Positions 5,543-63,206 of a stretch of 64,000 bases of DNA are shown in pieces. Source of the stretch: Eledone cirrhosa. Lineage: Eukaryota. The translations under genes were made by a program, and so were the position numbers. The stretch is from the NCBI GenBank assembly GCA_964016885.1, contig OZ024744.1:78182001-78246000 (forward strand), written 5' to 3'. The number at the start of each line of letters is the position of its first letter. Within the stretch, counting starts at the first letter, position 1. Below the pieces are notes generated by a model. That model was not told the DNA's origin. It was given only the letters and a program-made list of their open reading frames with translations, and ran no database searches.

Positions 5543-6990
5543 TCACATATTCAGCACAGCATCTCTCCACTCGTCACGGTCCTTCGTCATCTCCACTGTG
5601 AGCTTCAATGATCTGAGGTCTGTTCTTACCACCTCCGCCCATGTTTTTCGTGGTCTACCTCTACCACGTCTTCCTTCAACTGGCATTTCCTGGCACTTCT
5701 TCACCCATCGGTCATCCTCCATGCGCATCACATGTCCATACCACCTCAGTCTCCTCTCCCGTACACTACATTCTATCCCTCTCAGACACAGTTTCTCTCT
5801 CAACACATTTATGCTGGGTCGTTCACGCACATTTACACTGCACATCCAACGGAGCATGCTTGCCTCATTTCTCTCCAGCCGTCGCATATCCTCTGCAGTT
5901 GCTGCCCATGTCTCACTACCATGCAGTATCACGCTCTTCACACAGGCATCATACAACCAGCCTTTCATATGCAGGGAGAAACCCTTCTTCGTCAGCAGAG
6001 GAAGCAGCTCCCTAAACTTCTTCCAACCGGTCCTTATTCTAGATATATGGCCTTAGAACACACTCCGCCCATGCTAATCTGATCTCCTAGGTACCGGAAG
6101 CTATCCACCACTTCTATAGCGCCCTCCTGCATTTGAAAAATGTGTCTATCAATGCGACTTCTACTGTCTAATTTCCCTGTACATCTACTGCATACATATT
6201 TCTCCCTACCTGTTAATTTGCCTGCTATCCCGCTACATCTCTTGTGTACCCAGGATCTGCATTGTGTGCATTTTATAGAATTTATGCCAGTTCCTTTTCT
6301 GCATATCGAACATGGCCATTTCCCTGACGGAATCAGAGTTTTGTCCTCTTTTCTACTCATCAACACTTTTTTCTTAGCTAGGTTCACTCACAGTCCTCTT
6401 GCTTCCAACTGCTGTTTCCATAGCCAGAATTTATTCTCTAGCTCCTCTACTGATTCTGCTATAAGAACCAGATCGTCAGCATAGAGAAGTTCCCATGGAC
6501 AGCAAGTCTTAAACTCCTCTGTTATGGCTTGGAGGGCTATAATGAACAAGAGCGGGCTGAGGACCAAACCTAGATGTACTCCTACTTGTATCTGGAATTC
6601 CTCACTAAACTCCATTCCTACCCTGACTTTACTGACAGTACCTCTGTACAAAGTTTGCACTGTCCTCACAAGCCATTCCTCAACACCTAGCTTCCTTAGG
6701 GACCACCAGATGACAGATCGGGGTACCCTATCAAAGGCCTTCTCTAGGTCAACAAAGGCTAAGTATAGTGGCTTATTTTTCTCTAAGAACATCTCTTGTA
6801 ATTGTCTCACCAAGAAGAGGGCATCTGTTGTACTCTTCCCAGGCACAAAACCAAACTGCATCTCATCTAGTTTGACCCTTTCTCTAATTAGTTGTGCTAA
6901 TATCATTTCTGCCACTTTCATAACCTGATCCATCAGTTTTATACCCCTATAATTGGTCCTCTCCAGAGCATCCCCTTTACCTTTACCTAT
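5543..6990 (-). mobile_element. RTE-clade LINE, 5'-truncated RT pseudogene with PHD-type insert
   Basis: NYRGIKL, QFGFVPGKSTTDA, AFVDLEKAFDRVP, LLYADDL, FRYLG, RRLRWYGHVMRM, GRGRPRKTW; in-frame stop near 6388 and a frameshift. Confidence 0.93.
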
Positions 6991-7225
6991 ATATATCATC
7001 ATCATCATCATTTTACGTCCGCTTTCCCTGCTTGCAAGAGTGGGACTTACATACATACATATATATACGTGTGTGTATATATATATATATATATTGTTAT
7101 ATTTTGGGAGGGGTTTGGTTTGGTTTGGTTAGGATTGATTTTCGCTTCTGTATCTTTTATATCTCCATAAGTTAATTTATCTGGCAATCGATATTTATCA
7201 TTGATTGACCAGCGGTTAAAAATAC

Positions 7226-17231: not shown

Positions 17232-17269
<38 letters not shown>
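16845..17269. repeat. Compound (TA)n/(TATG) microsatellite
   Basis: direct reading. Confidence 0.97.
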
Positions 17270-17270
<1 letters not shown>

Positions 17271-17396
17271 CGAAGGAAAAGTGGTAAGGAACCAGGTGGA
17301 CCATAACGCACCAAAGTACTCAATACTTAGGGTAGTAGAGTGGGTAATAGGAACCAGTAAGATCCCGACCGACGGCTGAGCTCAAGCCGTTTCGAC
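17270..17396 (-). mobile_element. Penelope-like element 3' end fragment with the 3' half of a hammerhead
   Basis: minus strand GTCGAAACGGCTTGAGCTCAGCCGTCGG nearly identical to 44092-44119; sits in (TA)n; related piece at 25598-25685. Confidence 0.6.
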
Positions 17397-38237: not shown

Positions 38238-38582
38238 TCATCATCATTATTGTTTAATGTCTATTTTCCACGCTAGCATGGGTTAGACAGGTTGTCACAT
38301 TATAGGCAAGTTGGGTTGTGTCTTACTCATATAGAACTATTTCTGACTGTGTTTCTACGACTGGATTTCCTTCGTAACACCAACCACATTTACAGTGTGG
38401 GCTGGGTGCTTTTTGTCGTGACACCTACACGACCACTTTAAAATGTGGGCTGGGTGCTTTTTTTCATGATACCTACACGGCCACTTTAAAATGTAGGCTG
38501 GGTGCTTTTTGTTGTGACACCTACACGACCACTTTACAGTGTGGGCTGGGTACTTTTTGTCATGTAACCTACTCAACCACTT
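38238..38582 (-). mobile_element. RTE 3' UTR fragment with 44-bp tandem module
   Basis: about 4 copies of GTGGGCTGGGTGCTTTTTGTCGTGACACCTACACGACCACTTTA. Confidence 0.75.
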
Positions 38583-41911: not shown

Positions 41912-42150
41912 TATCATCATCATCATCATCATCATCTGGCGGCCTCAGCCGAAATGGACTCCACAATTGATCTCCACGTGGGTCTGTCATTCATTGCCGT
42001 TGCCAAGTCCTGGATTTCAATACCAGAATCTCTGGAGATGACATCAGGGTGGGAGAGCTTGTGCCTCCTATTATTAGTGACTGCTTGCAGTTTCCAAAGC
42101 AAGAATGGAGACACAGCCTTGTAGATGGCACAATGGCAGTGGCCAGCAAA
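41912..42150 (-). mobile_element. LINE (RTE-like) extreme 3' end with (TGA)n tail
   Basis: ..LLWK..DVISRDSG..DLATAMNDRPTWRSIV, then (GAT)n. Confidence 0.55.
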
Positions 42151-42588
42151 TCTTACTCTCCTCTCCTCTCCTTACATACAACGACAGATATATACGTGGG
42201 AGGCCCGGCATATATCTTCCATGCTTGTATAGATTAGACGGGATGTCATGGTAGATAAGTAAGGTTAGGTGACCAGAACTTGATCATATAGATCTGTATA
42301 TGTATGTGTGCGTGTGGGTGTGGCCCATCTTTGATTTGACTTGAAAAAAAAATGTGTGTGTGTGTGTGAAGGCACATCGCTTAGTGGTTAGAACATCAGG
42401 CTTGAAATCATGAGGTTGTGAGTTTGATTCTCAGACCAGGCTTTGCATTGTGTTCTTGAACAAAACACTATATTCCAATTAATGATAAAGTCATTATAAC
42501 TACAAATAAAATTAAGTGAATATTTAATCACTGTTTAATTGATTTGCATTACTAATTTACTGATTTTCATTATTTCATTTTATTTCAG

Positions 42589-42747
42589 CAATCTTTCATA
42601 ATGAAGAATGCACAGTTCATCCTTGAAGAGTTTCTTGGAATTGTTGAAACATTCTACCGTGATAAAGATATTGTATTTCCCAAAGAACTGATTTCTGTAA
42701 ATAATGAATTTAGACGCTTGAAAACACTTGCTAAAAGTCTTAGCTAA
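42589..42747 (+). CDS. EXOC8: EXOC8 terminal coding exon with TAA stop
   Basis: tatttcag|CAA; QSFIMKNAQFILEEFLGIVETFYRDKDIVFPKELISVNNEFRRLKTLAKSLS* (cf. KAFIRQNASFL); the ten exons total 1374 nt = 457 codons + stop. Confidence 0.88.
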   Translation, partial: QSFIMKNAQFILEEFLGIVETFYRDKDIVFPKELISVNNEFRRLKTLAKSLS

Positions 42748-42788
42748 AATGGAAATTGAAAATTTGTGTGTGTGTGTGTGTATATATA

Positions 42789-42859
<71 letters not shown>

Positions 42860-43071
42860 ATATGTATGTACATGTATATCATTGTGTTTTGATGCCTGCT
42901 TTCACTGCTAGCAAATATATTTTAAATAGATAGTCCCCAACAGCTGAGCTCATGCCACTAGGCACTAATTGTTTACTATACCTAGACTCTACTTTCTCAA
43001 GTATCAAGTAGTTAGCTGAACATGTTTTTACTTGTCTAAACTAGTAACTCCCAATATATATATATATATAA

Positions 43072-44135
43072 CAAACTACACTTTCTGGCCACATCTGGGA
43101 CCTCCAAGATAATAATATAACCTACAATCTCACTTGGAGCTTACTGTCCAGAGCTAACTCTTACACGGGAGGACGCCGTCCGTGTAACTTATGCTCGGAG
43201 GAAACATTACAAATGCTGTTTTCGAAGGACCAACTCCTAAACAAGAAAGACAAACTGGTAACCGCATGCAAACACAGATTGCGTATGACTTACCTCGCCC
43301 TCAAACCCCCTAACGACCCGGGTGGATAGACAAGGGTTGATAACCCCCCACTTGCCAAATAAGTTAGGGGAAACCCCAGCTTACATAGGTAGATGGATCT
43401 CTTTTCTTTTCCTCTTTGTCTTCTTCCCCCTGTCTCATCCTATCACTTCCTTCCACCCCCTATTTTCTTCCTCGTCTGCTTTTCCCCTTTCGCCTACCCC
43501 GATGCAGCCCATCAGGCCTCTGTAGCATCAGTTCCCCCACCCCTGTAATTTTAAGATAGTAAAACGTATTCGGCCAATTCTAACTACTTATGGCAGATGT
43601 GTTAAAACTCCTTTAATTCTGTATCAGTTTTGTTACTACTTATTCTACAAGTTTTTTTCTATTCTCAACTTATTAACCTGTAATTGTAAGATAGCATTGT
43701 GATTTTTTTTATTCATTTCTCACTATCTAATTTTATATTTTTTTTTCTTTCTTTCTATTATCTTTTATTGTCTCCTACTCTCATTCGATTTACCTATTCT
43801 ATAACCTCCCTCCTATACTATATAACCTCCCTACACTATCCTTAGAATCTGCTGTATACATATCACCTTCAATGCTTGACCTGAACGCTCCACTCACTCC
43901 CTCATTGTTCTACAGGCAAGTTCAGCCACCTCTACCTCCCACCAAATGCATGATAGACTTATTTGTATTTACAACAAATTTTGACCAATTCTCTTGACAA
44001 CTACAATGTTCCCATATAAGGAAGTACCCCCTTGACAAGTTCGGCTATTTATTCACCAGGCTAAAAATTCTAATTTAGTCCAGAAATAGCCGTCGAAACG
44101 GCTTGAGCTCTGCCGTCGGGGTCATACTTTTTCCT
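43072..44135 (+). mobile_element. Penelope-like element 3' portion: GIY-YIG endonuclease C-terminus (43072-43329), 3' UTR and hammerhead
   Basis: open frame QTTLSGHIWDLQDNNITYNLTWSLLSRANSYTGGRRPCNLCSEETLQMLFSKDQLLNKKDKLVTACKHR..*; bounded by (TA)n on both sides. Confidence 0.8.
44027..44121 (+). ncRNA. Type I hammerhead ribozyme candidate with U3-A8 core
   Basis: CCCC-TTGACAA-G..CGGCTATTT/AAATAGCCG..C-GAAA-CGGC/GCCG-TC-GGGG; predicted cleavage after C44117. Confidence 0.65.
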
Positions 44136-44649
44136 ATATATATATATATGTGTGTGTGTATATATATATATATATAAATATATATAAAATAGGTGAATTG
44201 CCAATGTATATCTGGAGGTGACCATAGTTAAAAAAGGTACTCAATATAGGCATCTTTATTTTATTATAGAAATTTTCTTCTTCTTTGCTCACTTATTCAT
44301 GGGAGGGTCATGGCAGCAGAGTCCTTAAATGCTCCTTCCAGCAGGGCCTGTCAGAAGCAACCATCTCCAATCGATACACCTGGATCTCCAAGCGAGACCA
44401 GTCGAGCTCATGGATGTTTTCCAACCATCTTGCTTGGGGTCTCCCTTCAGATGGTTTTGCCCGTAAAATCTGTCCAGTGATTCTTTCCTGAGGCATTCTA
44501 ACCACATGCCCGTAGTATCGGAGCTGTGATTTCAATTCGGAGAAGTAATCGCTCTACCTGGAGTGACTCTGATCTTGGAGTTTCGCATCGTTTAATGTCT
44601 ATTTTTTCCACGCTAGCATGGCTTAGATGAGTTGTCTTGTGAGAAATGT

Positions 44650-46820
44650 CAGGTCAAGCTAGATGCCCTTCCTTTTTATACAGCTATCATTCTTTATACG
44701 CATCACATGTCCATACCAACGCAGTCTCCTCTCCTGCCACCTGCACACTGCATCCAATTCTCCTTATGCCTAGCTTCTTTCTCAGTTTATTTATTTATTT
44801 ATGCTTTGCCATTCACGTATATTATTATTACACATCCATCGGAGCATTCAGGTTTCATTTCTTTCCAATCTTCACAAGTCTTCTGCTCACAACACCTGGG
44901 TCTCACCACCGTGCAACATTGCTGTTGATATGCTCACATCATACAATCTGCCTTTCATATTGAGGGAAAAGCTTTTTGTAGCTAGCAGTGGTTGAATCTC
45001 CCTGAACTTCTTCCATCCCATTCTCACTCTGGCTACTGTACTTTCAGAACACCCACTTCTACTGCGAATTTGGTTACTCAAATGGCTGAAGCTGTCTACT
45101 GCTTCTACTGAACCTTCCCGGGATTTAATAGCACTTGTTTCCTGTGATCATTTGCTGCTTACCACTCCGGTTCAATGGCTACATTTAAAACCTACATTCT
45201 TAGGTAATCTTCCTGAGATCCCACTACATCTCTTGTGTACCCATAGTTTGCATTTGGGACAGAGATGGAATTTCTACCTACACCTTTCCTTCAAGCCACT
45301 CACAAACCACTCATCTACTAGTTTTCTAAGAGCCCACCAGATTATGACACTGGGCACTGTGTCAAAAGCTTTCTCCAGATCAACAAATGCCAAGTAGAGT
45401 AGCTTACTTTTAGCTAGGTTCTTTTCCTGTAGCTGCTTCACCAGGTAGAGAGCATCTGTGGTGCTTTTACCTAGTACAAATCTGAACTGCATCTCATTTT
45501 GCTGCACTATAAGTCCTTCTCCTTACCTTAATGACCTGATCCATCAACTTGATGCCTCTATCGTTTCCTCTATCTTATGCATCTCCTTTACCCTTGTAGC
45601 AGTTGACAATGATCTTGCTGTGCCCATCATTTGGTGTGACACCATTTAGTATTACTTGGTTTACAATACATGTGGTTACGGTGTGACCTACTGACCCAGA
45701 TGCTTTCTGGCTTGTTTCCTGGTCTTCATAACCTTAATTGCTCTACTTACTATAGTGCTGTCTTGTATGGCTGAGCCCTCTGTAGGATCCCCTTAGGGTA
45801 GGGTCTCTTTCTCCCTAGCATTCTCCTCATTCAGTAATCTTTCATAATGGCTCTTCCATACAGCTTTCTTTTCAGCATCTGTGAAGGCAAGTGTGCTTTT
45901 ATCATCACAGACACACTTCTCACCAATGACATAGCAATTTTCTCTAACACACTGTGCCTCGCAATCCTGAACACTTCATGTTTCTGGTCCTCACGCTGCA
46001 AAACTTACTTAAATTTTTTATCTTCTTCTTCCCTCCTTGCTAAGTATACTTGTCGCTTAGAAACTCCCAATGCTCTTCTATATTGAATGTCTCTATCTGT
46101 TCTTCCTTACTGTCATAGGCATTGAGCAAAATATCTCTAAATCTGTTACTGGCTGAGGGCTCTTTCAGCTTCCATATCCTTCTCCTCCAGGTTGCCCTCT
46201 GATTCCAGGTTTATCTAGTTCTGACAACGAAGGTCACTAACTACCAGATTATGTTGGGAGATGTATTCCTCGCCAGGGAAGGATTTCGTGTTTACCACGT
46301 CACTCTATCTCGTCCTCTGGTAAGGATAAAATCTATCTGGCTAGCATGTTCACAGATCTATAGGTGACCAGGTGGTTGTCAGGTTTTTTGAAGTTTGTGT
46401 TACATATCGATATGTCATTGGCATCACAGAATTCTAGGAGCCTGAAACCTTCTTCATTTCTTGCGCCAAACCCGAAACCTCCATAAACTCTGTAGAAGCC
46501 ATCACAGTGTTTTCCAAAATGTCCATTAAAGTCCCCCGCAATGATTAGGAACTCAGTCATCCATTAGCGCAATAGTATGCATTAGGGATTCGTAAAACCT
46601 ATCTTTGCGTCCATCTGTCAACTTAGATTGGGTTGCGTATGCAGATATAATTGTTGTCATCGTTCTATTTAGGACTAGTCAGAGTTTAATGATTGTGTTC
46701 ACTCTATTTACGGAGATTACATTAGCTACCCATTTGTCAGCTAATAAGATACCTAATCCCTCCAGTCCGTTGTCATTTCCCATCCAGAAAAATTTGTAGC
46801 ACTGTTTTTTGCCTACAAGG
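44650..46820 (-). mobile_element. Degenerate RTE LINE spanning APE endonuclease to RT C-terminus, with deletions
   Basis: FFWMGNDNGLEGLGILL, IIAGDFNGHFG, LLEFCDAND, AFVDLEKAFD, STVARVRMGWKKFRE. Confidence 0.88.
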
Positions 46821-48004
46821 AGTCTAGTTGACTCTCCTACCCACAATATAATTTCAATATAATTGTGTTGGTGAGGTTTTATGTTGTTCAGTAACTTATT
46901 CTCTAATTCACTAATATAGCATTTGGAAACAAACACATGCAGAAGACTAGAAAACTAGCTAGGGATTGCTTCTCATATCTATAATTTCATCTCTTCTTTC
47001 AGGCTATAGTTTGAAGATAAACGTTCTTGGTTTGTATTCTCATGTGAGTGTGCACTAGGAGGTATTTTATTGCACCAGCACTACTGTCTTACACGATAGA
47101 CTAGGTGCTTTTTCTTGTTGCCCCAGTACTACCCACCTTACAGAGTGGACTGGGTGCTTTTTGTCGTTGCCCGACTATGACTGCATTAGAGGGTAGACTG
47201 GGTGTTTTTTGTTGTTTCCACCTAAAAACATTTAATTCAACAAATGTTTCTATATCAATATCTGTTATAATAATGCCAATATCTGTTTTATGATGATGAT
47301 GATGATGATATATATATGTGTGCAACCAGTGCTTTGAGAAAACAACACCAAACTTCAGCACTGAGCATATAAAAAAAATCAAAATAACAGAAATAAGCTC
47401 TATTCCATCGTTATATTTTTCTGTTTTTTTTTCTGTTCAAATTCTAGCTGTCTAATGAAGTCATAGCTGTTGCATAATGGTTATCACCGAAATATATATA
47501 ACACCGAATATGAATAACCTATTGACTTACACTTCTTGTTTTTATATTTATTGAATTAGTAACTTCACTGTAGTTTTGACTACAGAAAATTAAAATACGG
47601 CAAAGTTGCTATTAAATCAATTCACTTTTAAAATTCCATCGCATTCTTCTTATCACATGATGTTTACACGCGCACACACATATCAATTCCAATCGGATTT
47701 TAAGCTTTGATAATAAATTATTTCTAAAGTTTTGTTATTCAATGTTGAAAATTAAGTACGATTTGTTCATTTGGAATATATTTATTTGATTTATCTTCTT
47801 GAATTATTTATATTGCGATTAAAAAATTAAATACTTAATTCTAATGGTTAATTAAAAAAATAATGCATTTACATTTTTGTGTGTTTCGTTGGTTTTTTTT
47901 CTTTTTGATTTTTATTGTAAAATAACAGGAAAATGAAACAAATTATATTTTTTGTCAGTTGTTGTAGAAAAATATTCATGTTAGCTTGCCAAATAAAGAG
48001 TCAG

Positions 48005-48700: not shown

Positions 48701-49455
48701 TCAGGTGTATGTGAGACCATTCATAAGCGAGACACTGACCCCTGGCCTGTCTAGGAGATAAGTAGCCCTGCTTCAGCACTGACTTGCTAATGATGTTAGC
48801 ATAGGATAGAGAAAGCTCTTTGGTCAAGTGAATGACCTGATAAAACCTGTAGTGCTACTAGCATAATAACCCCACAACCCCACCTCCATTTCACTCAGTA
48901 TGGTGGTAGATGTTAGAAAATGCATCCAACTGTGGATATCATGCCTATAGCCGAATGTATGTGAGACATAGCCTGTCTGGGATGACATCAGTTCTGATTA
49001 AGTACTGACATGGTTTCAAATACCCCCATCATCCAACCCATGCTAACATGAGAAAATGAATGTAAAATAATGATGATGATGATGATGATGAATTCTCTCA
49101 GCACTACCATCATTATCATCACCAACTATAATATGCATACCAATCTCCCCCCTCCACGCCACCGAAAGGAAAGCCAATGGCCATTACAGCTTGGCAACAG
49201 TAATGTCGCAAGTCATTTCTACATTTGAGTGAACTGGAGCAACATGAAATAAAGTGCCTTGCTCAAGTACACAACACATTGCCTAATCCGGGAATCAAAC
49301 TCACAACCTCATGATTATGAATCCAACTCTCTAACCACTAAGCCACATGCCTTCACACTGGCAACTCTAGAGAATATCAAATGCAGCACAAACCTATGAC
49401 ACACACACACAACAATCATCACCTCCAGTCTTACCAATGTTAAATGATGATGATG

Positions 49456-51499
49456 ATTTACATATAGAGGGACCAGCAGTGTTAGTCAAAGGTAGTATAA
49501 TAAGTAAGGCAATCAAAGATATGAAGACGGGTAAGGCGGCTGGGCCTTCGGAAATAGTTGCTGAGATGCTGAAAGCCTCTGGAACGGTGGGACACACCAT
49601 GGTCACCCGGATAGTAAACCAAGTCATACAGAATGGGGTTGTTCCGAAGGACTGGCGTAGCAGCATCATCATTAACTGCTACAAGGGTAAAGGAGATGCC
49701 CTAGATAGGGGTAACTATAGAGGCATTAAATGAATCGACTAGGTCATGAAGGTCACAGAAAAAGTAATAGCGCAACTAATCAGAGAGAGAATTGATCTAG
49801 ATGAAATGCAGTTCGGGTTTGTGTCAGGCAAAAGTACCACAGACGCTCTTTTCATTGTACGACAACTACAGGAGAAGTACCTAGCTAAAAGTAAAGCCCT
49901 ATACTTAGCTTTTGTCGACTTGGAGAAAGCCTTCGACAGAGTCCCCCGTTCCATTATCTGGTGGGCTCTTAGAAAACTAGGTATTGATGAATGGCTTGTG
50001 AGAACTATACAAGCCATGTATAAAGAAACAGTCAGCAAGGTTAGAATTAACAACAAATATAGTGAAGAGTTTAGCGTAAAAGTTGGTGTTCATCAGGGCT
50101 CCGTTCTTAGCCCCCTATTATTTATTATTGCCCTTCAGGCTATAACAGTGGAGTTCAAGACCGGCTGCCCATGGGAACTCCTATACGCAGATGATCTAAC
50201 GCTCATAGCTGAATCAATGGCCGAACTAGAGAAGAAATTCCAAACATGGAAGCACGGCCTAGAATCAAAAGGCCTTAAAATTAACCTGTCTAAGACTAAA
50301 GTTGTAGTTTGTAGGAAGGAAAATAGGGCGCCGGTCCCATCCGGGAAATGGCCATGCTCAGTGTGTAGGAAAGGAGTAGGTAGAAACTCCATTTTATGTC
50401 CCAAATGCAAAGTATGGGTGCATAAAAGATGTAGTGGGATGACAGGTAAGCTAACTAAGAACATAGATTTTACATGTGGCCGGTGCTCTGGTGCAATAAG
50501 TAGCAGCAAGTGCCCACAGAATACTAGCTCTTTCAATTGCACAGAGGGTTCTATAGAAATAGTGGACAGCTTCCGTTACCTGGGTGACAAAATCAGCAGT
50601 GGGGGAGGGTGCTCTGAAAGTACAGTAGCTAGAGTCAGAACGGGATGGAAAAGGTTCAGAGAGCTTATACCACTATTAGCTGCTAAAGGGTTCTCCCTAA
50701 AAATGAAAGGCAGGTTGTATGATGCCTGGCAGTGAGACCTGGGCATTGTGTGCAGAGGATATACGCAGACTAGAGAGGAACGAAGCTTGCATGCTCCGCT
50801 GGATGTGTAATAGTAATATACGTGAACGGCAAAGCATTAACGAACTAAGGGAAAAATTAGAAATAAGAGGGATCAGATGCTGTTTACTCGAGAGAAGACT
50901 ACGTTGGTACGGTCACGTGATGTGCATGAAAGACGACAGCTGTATAAAAAAATGCAGGGCAATAAAAATAGACGGTAGCCACGGAGTAGGCAGACCCAGA
51001 AAAACCTGGGACGAGCTGATAAATTCCAACCTCACACACTTACACCTCTCCAAGACAATGTCACTGGACCAAGATCTTTGGCGCTACACAGTAATACAGA
51101 AGACTCGCCTTGCCTCAGTACAAAGCGAAACCTACAGTCAGTAGGCACCTCTAACAAAAATACACCCCCCGTCCAACCACTCCCACCCCATCCATACCAC
51201 CCCTTTCAATGTAAAGTTATGTTGGTGCCGCGCCATCCAGGCCGAAACAAATGAGGTCGTGTAGGTGTCACAACAAAAAACACACAGTCCACGCTGTAAT
51301 GTGGCCGTGTAGGCAACACGGTAAAAACCTCCCAGTCCACACTGTAAATGTTGTTGGTGTTAGGAAGGGCATCCAGCTGTAGAAAATCCGCCAGACAGTC
51401 CTATGCGAGCAAGACAACCACTCTTGCCTCGAGTGGGAAAACTCCTGTCCAAACCCATGCAAGCCTGGAACATGGCCGTTAAACGATGATGATGATGAT
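49456..51499 (+). mobile_element. RTE LINE, 5'-truncated, with RT, PHD insert, 3' UTR and (GAT)n tail
   Basis: GKAAGPSEIVAEML, NYRGIK, QFGF, FVDLEKAFD, GVHQGSVLSP, YADD, FRYLG, RLRWYGHV; stops near 49731 and frameshift near 50728. Confidence 0.95.
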
Positions 51500-61150: not shown

Positions 61151-63206
61151 CAGGGGTCGGCAACCTTTTGGAGAGAGAGAGATAGCCAAACAGCTATGCA
61201 GTGTCATGGAGGAGGGTCATGTTATTAAATATGTAAATAAATTTTCTGGAAGTTTAAAGCAAAACAAGGAATTTAATATAATTTTATTTTAACAAGTCCC
61301 CTGCAGGAATAACAAAGAAAAAGAAAAAAAAAACTACAAACACATTCAAAAAAAAAAAAAAGCAAATTCATTATTTTACTGCAGGAATAACAGAAAAACA
61401 ACTACTATCAGAATCAACAAAAAAAAAAGCAAATTCCTTGATACAAACGAAATACAGTTAGAAATGGTAAATGATTTAATGAGACACTTGTTTCTGCTTA
61501 TTGTGTGATAACTTCTCCACATCAGGTGAAATATTTGTCGATGACAGGAGCAAAACATCATCCAGGTGGTCGTCACGCAACCTTGTTCTTAAATGACTTT
61601 TAGTATATTTCATTTTGGAAAAAAGTTGTTCACAAGCATATGTACTTCCAAATAATGATATCATCAGTTTCGCATTAGTCAAGATGTTTTTATATTTTCT
61701 GCTTGGCAATATATATATCTTGTAGAAGTCAGCAGTGGATTCAAACTGAAATTCGATTTCAAAGATTCGTCGCACTGTAAGTCAATTAACTCCAATTGAT
61801 ATTCTTCTGCCACTTGCTCCACATCTGTTTCGTAAGGAGTACCAAATAACTTAAATAGAGTTCCATATTGCCGGAAGTCAGCAAAACGAGAGGAAAGTTC
61901 GCTTCTCAAATCCTTAATAGAGCTCACAAAGATGTCTGGTATTGTATCTCTGTTGTGATTTTGGAGACTTGGGAAATGAGAGTAGTTTCCTTTTTGAAGT
62001 TGTGATTCCCACAGTCGAAGTTTTCTCTCAAAAGCAGTAATTTGACCAAACATCTCAAATACAATCTTGTTCTTTCCTTGAAGCTCAAGATTCAAAGTGT
62101 TCATGTGGGTCGTGATGTCCACTAAAAAACTTGACAACCCACTGTGGATCCTGAAAGTAAGAATTATCTTTGTCTTTGCTCTCTAAAAATTTAAAAATCT
62201 CTTCTCTCAATGCATATATACTTGTTCTATCATTTTTCCGCGGCTAAGCCATCAAACATTTGAAAATATGTAAGGTCGCCATACTCTGCTTCAATTTGTT
62301 TTGAAACAGGCGGTGATTTAGTCTTCTTGACAGTATAAAATTCACTGTTTTCACGACCACTGCCATGATGTCCTTAAAATTCAGTGACTTTGCACATAAT
62401 GCTTCTTGATGAATAATGCAATGAAGTTTGATTAATTTTTGATCAATACCGATGTGGTTTTGGAGCAATGCAACAAACCCCTTTTTCTCTCCGACCATTG
62501 CTGGTGGTCCATCTGTGATTACTCCAGAAAGCTTTCATAAATCCAGATTCATTTCGGTAATCCATTTTATTATGCTTTCCAAAATATCTGCTCCAGTGCT
62601 AGTGTCCTTCATAAGAATCAATTGTACAAATTCTTCCACAATATCAAATGTTGGTGTTACACCCCTCACAAACACTGCAAGTTGACAAGTATCCTTCATA
62701 TCTGTGGTTTCATCGATAACAATGGAATTATACTCCAGATTATTTAAAATGCCCTTCAAGCCACTTCTGACATTTGCTGCCAGCTCTTCAATTTGCCTTG
62801 TTACTGTTCTTGCTGATAAGCTGATCGCAGAAAATAATTCCCTTTTATCTGGACAAACAACATCTGCTACCTTCAACAATAATTCTTTTTTCATCCTTTC
62901 TGCAATTAGTTTTGACACCTCGTAGCTAGCACGAGTGTTTCAGTCACTTTCTTCAACTTTTCTAGTGAAAAAGGATGATTGCTTTGTTACATTATTTCTC
63001 AGCCATGCAACTTCGTTTACTCGTGCTTTTCCAGTAAAACTGTTGTAATGATTATGACGAGTTTCATAGTGCCGTTTCAAGGCAATGGTTTTTTGATAAA
63101 TTAAGCAAACACATTTTCCGAAGTGCTCAATGAAAAAATAGCTAAGTGTCCAGCCATCGTTAAAAGTTCGGCACTCCAAATCCACTTTTCTTTTCTTAGC
63201 TTCCAT
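61151..63206 (-). mobile_element. hAT (Buster/Charlie group) DNA transposon; one TIR visible, other end not found
   Basis: TIR CAGGGGTCGGCAACC preceded by TA-centred 8-mer GTCTATAC; contains a transposase remnant. Confidence 0.85.
61476..63206 (-). pseudogene. Frameshifted hAT transposase (GTF2IRD2/EPM2AIP1-like)
   Basis: five ORF pieces: MEAKKRKVDLECRTF..CVCLI..LKRHYETRH; SLSARTVTR..IDETTD..QLAVFVR; LHCIIHQEALC; LNLELQGK; FGSTYACEQLFSKMK..RTRL. Confidence 0.93.

Follow-up and report, generated by a model that had tools for sequence, protein, structure and literature searches.

Behind the last exon of the EXOC8 gene of Eledone cirrhosa lies a hammerhead motif with U3-A8 at the place of the canonical C3-G8 pair, at the end of what had been described as a remnant of a Penelope-like retroelement. 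Is this motif a functional ribozyme, what does its variant pair record, and does it concern the host gene or only the element? The window analysed here, i.e. the whole stretch of 64,000 nucleotides from contig OZ024744.1, was therefore considered together with related copies across the genome. Taken by itself, the single copy behind EXOC8 is ordinary. The explanation we regard as probable is that it belongs to a high-copy Hydra-type family of Penelope-like retroelements and was inserted, truncated at its 5' end, in (TA)n, and that its hammerhead is likely a conserved but conditional ribozyme, the cutting of which is likely dispensable for insertion.

The features of the locus are collected in Table 1. 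The neighbouring gene was correctly named in the preliminary description: its last exon corresponds to the C-terminus of Octopus EXOC8, another exon is 97% identical to Octopus EXOC8 proteins, and one exon matches Exo84_C (E 3.5e-6, below the curated cut-off). The distance from the stop to C17 is 1,370 nt. The element copy spans 43075-44137, is 5'-truncated at 43075 and is bordered by (TA)n at both ends, as had been claimed. The 85-codon frame reported at 43072-43329 is present as a stop-to-stop frame; its first codon belongs to the flank, and identity to the element starts at 43075. A fixed 5' boundary at 43075 among siblings was considered and rejected, as this is the query's own edge and the siblings continue upstream. 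About 700 nt of non-coding DNA separate the frame from the hammerhead. Compared with the majority of ten siblings, the window copy differs at 5/255 ORF, 46/667 UTR and 0/126 hammerhead positions.

Table 1. Positions of the host exon, the element copies and the hammerhead parts in the window.
Feature	Position	Strand	Remarks
Stub copy of the same element family, other subfamily	17268..17396	-	lies within (TA)n and has the 80-nt tail; truncation 3 nt before G12
EXOC8 of the host, last coding exon	42589..42747	+	stop 42745-42747; C-terminus matches P0122 (exocyst complex component 8) at 50/52 residues
(TA)n target, 5' part	43056..43070	.	read from sequence
Last 84 codons of element ORF, C-terminal half of GIY-YIG endonuclease	43075..43329	+	77/84 identical to residues 634-717 of sibling L061
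Endonuclease motifs	CNLC 43183, EE 43198, LN 43237, CKH 43267	+	located on sequence
3' UTR / pLTR body of element	43330..44011	+	end-to-end alignment with sibling copies, 87-91%
Type I hammerhead fold	44012..44137	+	U3 (44032), A8 (44037); stem II long and in two parts, stem III of 5 bp; cleavage predicted to follow 44117
Stem I, CCCC/GGGG	44028-31 / 44118-21	+	as previously described
Core UUGACAA	44032-38	+	U3-A8
G10.1-C11.1 pair	44039/44094	+	located on sequence
Stem II, 9-bp helix	44042-50 / 44084-92	+	located on sequence
Hotspot of 5' truncation in the family (distal stem II, 3' arm)	44069..44083	+	56/84 short copies; window copy reads through
GAAA	44095-98	+	located on sequence
Stem III arms	44099-102 / 44112-115	+	located on sequence
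Palindrome GAGCTC in loop III	44105..44110	+	predicted dimerisation site; 0/6 columns vary over 12 subfamilies
GUC site, C17	44117	+	predicted cleavage site
Proximal 3' end, into (TA)n target	44134..44150	.	~20 nt past cleavage site; sequence and sibling alignments

Other repeats are found in the window as well. Three fragments of non-LTR reverse transcriptase (RT) elements (44308-46954 and 5543-7128 on the minus strand, 49371-51144 on the plus strand) are presumably RTE-like, as far as their motifs tell. The first of them is antisense and lies directly behind the hammerhead, within the possible EXOC8 UTR. Two frames at 61679-62939 (-) resemble a decayed hAT-type transposase.

The identity of the element was established through its siblings. 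The 3' end gave 41 scored matches at 95-100% (1,942 candidates) and the window peptide 150 scored matches at 90-100%; siblings were examined in 20 stretches, 18 of them around copies with long open frames and 2 around inverted pairs. In sibling L061 the order is inverted pLTR, pLTR, ORF, pLTR; the ORF is intact and encodes 719 aa, and 2,054 relatives of this ORF were found at E<=0.001 among 8,000 candidates scored. The ORF contains the RT motifs FIQFD (250) and YRDD (348), a C-terminal endonuclease (VIY 591, YIG 606), RWR at position 37 (RWK in most relatives), SDKT at 116 (DKT instead of DKG) and the CxCx5C linker CNCPDRSIC at 572. GxKF/Y and CCHH are absent, with one Cys and no His between VIY and YIG. 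The CxxC/CxH residues surround a conserved E and N (CNLCSEE 670, LLN 687, CKH 698) and are also present in the window copy. The match of the window peptide to an ORF bearing both RT and C-terminal endonuclease bears out the earlier claim of a Penelope-like remnant with a GIY-YIG tail. The last 160 residues of L061 match GIY-YIG clusters at 0.95-0.96 by features (PF01541 covers 59% of one). Apart from 7 single weak matches, the Pfam scan was blank for the peptide, for the intact ORF and for 20 aligned relatives alike. None of 20 Hydra-type proteins matches an RT or GIY-YIG family in the Pfam copy used, so the clade is missed by that scan. Sequence searches of PDB returned chance matches only, and the 85-aa peptide as query found no longer homologue.

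The CxxC/CxH tail had been taken to recall Naiad/Chlamys-type elements. These share with our element the (TA)n bias, pLTRs, inverted truncated copies and tails, but their endonuclease is N-terminal and Naiads are without canonical hammerheads; an endonuclease preceding the RT is not found here, and the domain order excludes this identity. The CxxC/CxH tail, (TA)n targeting, hammerhead and C-terminal endonuclease are instead marks of the Hydra clade, as given in the available part of PMC8557442. The protein fits this clade in its C-terminal GIY-YIG domain, RWK-type motif, DKT, CxCx5C linker, lack of CCHH and CxxC/CxH around E and N, as does the element in its (TA)n targets and 3' hammerhead. 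Judging from its sequence, it is a high-copy Penelope-like element fitting the Hydra clade. Protein P0064 (41% identity, E 8.8e-170) is by eye near letter-for-letter like the part of Hydra-2_Amil displayed in that paper; L061 also resembles by eye Hydra-1_Obim of Octopus bimaculoides (PMC8557442, same portion), from which, again by eye, the present element is a distinct family. Two marks differ. The unit, ~3.1-3.5 kb from sibling coordinates, exceeds 3 kb, which is a soft feature in the text seen of PMC8557442, and the core is a variant one, C3-G8 occurring in 12/7,375 young-group matches and in older relatives. In supplement S2 of PMC8557442 each of the 26 Hydra rows, which were found with a canonical-core descriptor, has C3-G8, a short stem II and a loop III of 1-3 nt. 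In the present element, by contrast, positions 3 and 8 are U3-A8 or mismatched, stem II measures 56 nt and loop III 9 nt, the tail has 80 nt, and stubs number in the tens of thousands. A non-LTR retrozyme, defined in the accessible part of bioRxiv 10.64898/2026.07.22.740005 by short non-coding head-to-tail repeats each with a hammerhead, was rejected: here a single copy is joined to the end of an ORF, and the stubs are inverted pairs lacking the 5' core. Two other frames adjoin family copies: L077:5834-6751 (+), the end of a second, more divergent Hydra-like ORF lying back to back with its neighbour, which served as outgroup, and L068:7367-9211 (-), a 614-codon frame with RT and C-terminal endonuclease from a different Penelope-like family.

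All parts of the hammerhead claimed before, including the UUGACAA core and GUC, are where they had been placed. The motif has three stems around the core, closure through stem I and an NUH site, as a type I hammerhead does, along with an internal loop in stem I and the long stem II. A strict hammerhead descriptor recovers 1 site in the window vs 0 in 200 block-shuffled windows, and the stability of the fold has z = -2.4 (2/200 shuffles as stable). The Rfam scan of 42000-46000 failed to support the assignment, with 0 hammerhead families among 14 matches at E<=10. The 3-8 pair is of the Watson-Crick kind in the window copy (U3-A8) and not in 1,886/7,375 young-group matches. In the window subfamily five Cs (44027-44031), not four, precede U3, with a lower predicted probability of the stem I register (0.48 vs 0.92).

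The fold is conserved in a pattern expected of a hammerhead. Among 12 subfamily majorities, none of the 10 other core columns varies, as is the case for 0/8 columns of stem I and 0/6 of the palindrome; 1/8 vary in stem III, 7/18 in proximal stem II, 24/33 in distal stem II and 12/14 in the 3' flank. To lessen ascertainment, the core was also left as N in the search pattern: in the 83 family rows among the first 100 listed (hand count), U4 was found in 83, G5 in 81, A6 in 83 and A9 in 81, position 7 was G in 43, A in 18, U in 13 and C in 9, and position 3 was U in 65 and C in 18. Positions 11.1-15.1 are intact in 85/100 first matches listed, with scattered changes. In 23 distinct representative copies 90.2% of cells pair. 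Two-sided changes in stem II include A-U/G·U/G-C, G-C/U-A and A-U/U-A; three measures beat all 500 shuffles and two of five did not (197 and 337 of 500), related sequences inflating the other measures. Selection on the hammerhead had been proposed from a paired change at positions 3 and 8. The fold is real and under long-term constraint, given the invariant core columns, but the paired change does not stand.

This can be seen from the 3-8 states of the young group: U3-A8 5,477, C3·A8 1,830, U3·G8 56 and C3-G8 12, counted as exact patterns in one shared context, with reversed-pattern controls at 0. Independence of positions 3 and 8 predicts about 17 C3-G8 copies against the 12 seen, so the positions do not covary, and the change described as compensatory is unpaired. 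It would rather seem that single steps led to U3-A8, via mismatched states which were amplified in their turn. As U3-A8 is the commonest state and a recurrent one, the pair may nevertheless be mildly preferred. C3·A8 as a slipped C-run or a late mutation was considered and rejected: the run length is unchanged and C3·A8 copies cluster. One small subfamily has U3·G8 in 18/18 matches. An older group gave 455 matches; the first 100 listed comprise 88 U3-A8, 9 U3·G8, 3 C3-G8 and 0 C3·A8, and all 9 with G7 carry G8 (hand counts). A search with G8 fixed, which by design shows no A8 forms, returned more divergent relatives, five C3-G8 and four near-identical U3·G8 on one contig. The latter are old hammerheads at 38329, 64751, 91115 and 117976 of contig C440, ~26.4-26.9 kb apart, which suggests a large tandem array.

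The order of these changes was traced with trees of the 3' end in which positions 3 and 8 were masked. Both the first (116/164 rows kept) and the second (105/177 rows; 44 dropped for non-element sequence upstream, 28 subsampled away) give a ladder of subfamilies. A tree of the ORF only (34 chosen rows) gives the same ladder and separates the old group plus the U·G subfamily from the rest at 100/100. Along it the copies lie closer to the majority of their own subfamily, the median divergence being 13% at the old end and about 2-3% at the young end (n = 4 to 43), with subfamilies labelled by the author's diagnostic motifs (11 rows without label, window subfamily biased low). From old to young we infer the path C-G, U·G, U-A, U·G, U-A (the branch of the window copy), C·A, U-A; its direction rests on the divergence and the older relatives, and the older subfamilies were found with patterns fixing part of the core. 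A tree with a distant outgroup is contrary, as it roots the young group at the opposite end. This rooting with a distant family was rejected as being at odds with the 3'-end tree, the ORF-only tree and the subfamily divergences, with two long branches involved, and stands as evidence to the contrary. Against a selected preference for U3-A8 it may be said that chance would give three arrivals at U-A with no arrival at C-G about 1 time in 8, and that AT-biased mutation points the same way.

Predicted folding offers a possible reason for the preference. When positions 3 and 8 were swapped in silico, U3-A8 had the highest open-core probability in 12/12 backgrounds and C3-G8 had <=0.03 in 10/12; the G8 core pairs with loop III in 5/6 of the predicted folds printed. 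With loop III shuffled, the C3-G8 probability rose in 5/6 backgrounds and that of U3-A8 was still higher in 6/6, so its folding advantage is partly generic. In its own context the window copy has a predicted open-core probability of 0.07-0.12. Pairing of two copies through the palindrome is predicted to gain 13.9 kcal/mol (5/1,000 loop shuffles as low), in line with the dimeric Penelope hammerheads of PMC6765202, as far as its available text goes. Stem III of 5 bp is long enough for a monomer, which counts against a requirement for the dimer.

Most copies of the family are stubs. The 3' half of the ribozyme has 66,229 matches vs 8,408 for the 5' half, the latter count including an unrelated high-copy repeat (~16-17 of the first 100 matches listed) that shares the flanking pattern and not the core. 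Stretches from the beginning of contig 1 contain 60 copies; the whole ribozyme is present in 6, and 40 stop 31-50 nt before C17. Among the 84 short copies of all loci, 56 break off within the distal 3' arm of stem II, at 35-49 nt before C17, and none begins at the cleavage site. The summed depth of public-sample contigs steps up about 19-fold at this hotspot, with loose ends at 44070-44078; this step is not a copy number and comes from one public sample, possibly the assembly's source, the DNA runs of which give no cover across 42870-43077. Two fixed 3' ends lie about +20 and +100 from the cleavage site; 26/30 tails end at +100, into TA, and the stubs are often head-to-head pairs, one ending at about +20 and the other at +100. 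Among 24,333 tail-bearing matches, 99 of the first 100 listed read through the cleavage site, and the exception also extends 40 nt. The ORF begins 190 nt past that site. As most copies stop inside stem II and none of the 84 starts at the cleavage site, the template is likely an uncut or re-joined RNA.

A precedent is the Poseidon element PAc of Anolis carolinensis. According to the part of PMC11167929 available, unprocessed RNA is its template, hammerhead mutants have no effect on insertion in vitro, cleavage required protein, and the tail is made by two internal RT starts. The present element is like it in AT-rich targets and the lack of ends at the cleavage site, and probably in two RT starts defining the tail and an uncut RNA template; its features match those of PAc in vitro. 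Unlike it, PAc belongs to another clade and has canonical C3-G8 and an ORF starting inside the hammerhead.

In the mechanism that would join these findings, the element protein would nick (TA)n and prime, at two internal sites, the reverse transcription of an RNA left uncut or joined again. As the enzyme would usually come to a halt in the long stem II, most insertions would be stubs, many of them in head-to-head pairs. Cleavage would be confined to hammerheads that are paired with each other via the loop III palindrome or are helped to fold by the element protein. This would relax selection on 3:8 enough to let master copies with U·G and C·A amplify, and U3-A8 would be mildly favoured as it keeps the pair and avoids the misfold predicted between the G8 core and loop III. 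From a single copy within an EXOC8 transcript, only poor cutting would be expected. The four 3:8 states among relatives suggest that self-cutting is likely weak or conditional and likely unneeded for jumping. Against an uncut template it may be said that read-through copies fit re-ligated circular RNA equally well, and that run-off products from a cut 5' end might simply fail to integrate.

A wider claim can be put forward only tentatively: that one genome keeps, in the order given above, a stepwise fossil series of the catalytic tertiary pair of a ribozyme, that mismatched cores amplified to as many as 1,830 copies, that misfolding of the canonical core against the dimerisation palindrome led to renewed selection of U3-A8, and that the same fold, by stalling the RT of the element itself, leaves close to nine in ten insertions as ribozyme stubs.

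It is also conceivable, if rather unlikely, that the ribozyme is active and needed. Tandem transcripts would then be cut to unit RNAs and ligated to circles serving as template, all copies would cross the joined site, and U·G and C·A would keep residual activity as dimers. A circle model has been proposed for such elements (PMC4209133, in the part available), more-than-unit partial tandems exist (L061), and ten core positions, stem I and the palindrome have not changed along an extended lineage; occupation of the palindrome in the predicted dimer would remove the G8 misfold. These points have to be set against the amplification of a mismatched core in the 1,830 C3·A8 copies and against PAc, in which breaking the 3-8 pair ended cleavage and left insertion in vitro unaffected (C3G and G8C, not C·A; PMC11167929, in its available part).

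That the motif no longer cuts, and is kept as a protein-binding or RT-positioning structure beside the two priming sites while 3:8 drifts neutrally by transitions, we consider improbable. All inferred changes at 3 and 8 are indeed single transitions, the two positions are independent in the counts, no short copy has its 5' end at the cleavage site, and the predicted open-core probability of the window copy is low. The constraint is nevertheless that of a hammerhead, with position 7 free and 4-6, 9 and 12-17 fixed, and the majority state U3-A8 is reported active in other hammerheads in the accessible text of PMC3088659.

Least probable of all is an action on the host, in which EXOC8 transcripts running through the copy would be cut at 44117 with altered mRNA stability or 3' end formation: its sense orientation and intact fold agree with this, as does the lack of AATAAA/ATTAAA on the plus strand from the EXOC8 stop to 46525, which makes a long UTR possible, but the weak signals AATATA (42914) and AATAGA (42925) lie upstream of the element, the window holds no second full hammerhead, the copy is one among thousands of full copies, and its ORF part is about 2% diverged like its siblings, so that 0/126 is no clear sign of host selection.

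The kind of element, the hammerhead and U3-A8 as such are already known. Natural U3-A8 hammerheads with the same C3-G8 to U3-A8 exchange, cited as covariation and as active in vitro, appear in PMC3088659 as isolated examples, its available text giving no lineage within a genome. Cercyon of Schistosoma mansoni (PMC4209133, part available) has a U3-A8 core within a Penelope-like pLTR, with about 1,300 hits there, a G10.1-C11.1 pair and a palindromic helix III/loop 3; its hammerheads are minimal and, unlike here, form no stable helix III, and that part describes no succession of intermediate or mismatched states. What is new is the family history of 3-8 states within one genome. The literature search, in the portions of papers available, found for Penelope-like families neither a succession of 3-8 states along a lineage nor amplification of C3·A8 cores, nor stubs ending in stem II; the supplements of PMC4209133 and PMC11167929 and work on 3-8 exchange or Penelope dimers may bear on this. 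As Rfam misses the motif and Pfam the protein, a family with >66,000 genomic ends is invisible to both scans.

For one Penelope-like element cleavage is dispensable in vitro, and yet the hammerhead is conserved in these elements. The present family offers natural 3-8 variants, each with a copy count as a record of its past success in one genome, and therefore cleavage rate and amplification can be set directly against each other. The family may also be a case in which compensatory evolution at a catalytic pair passed through observable intermediates.
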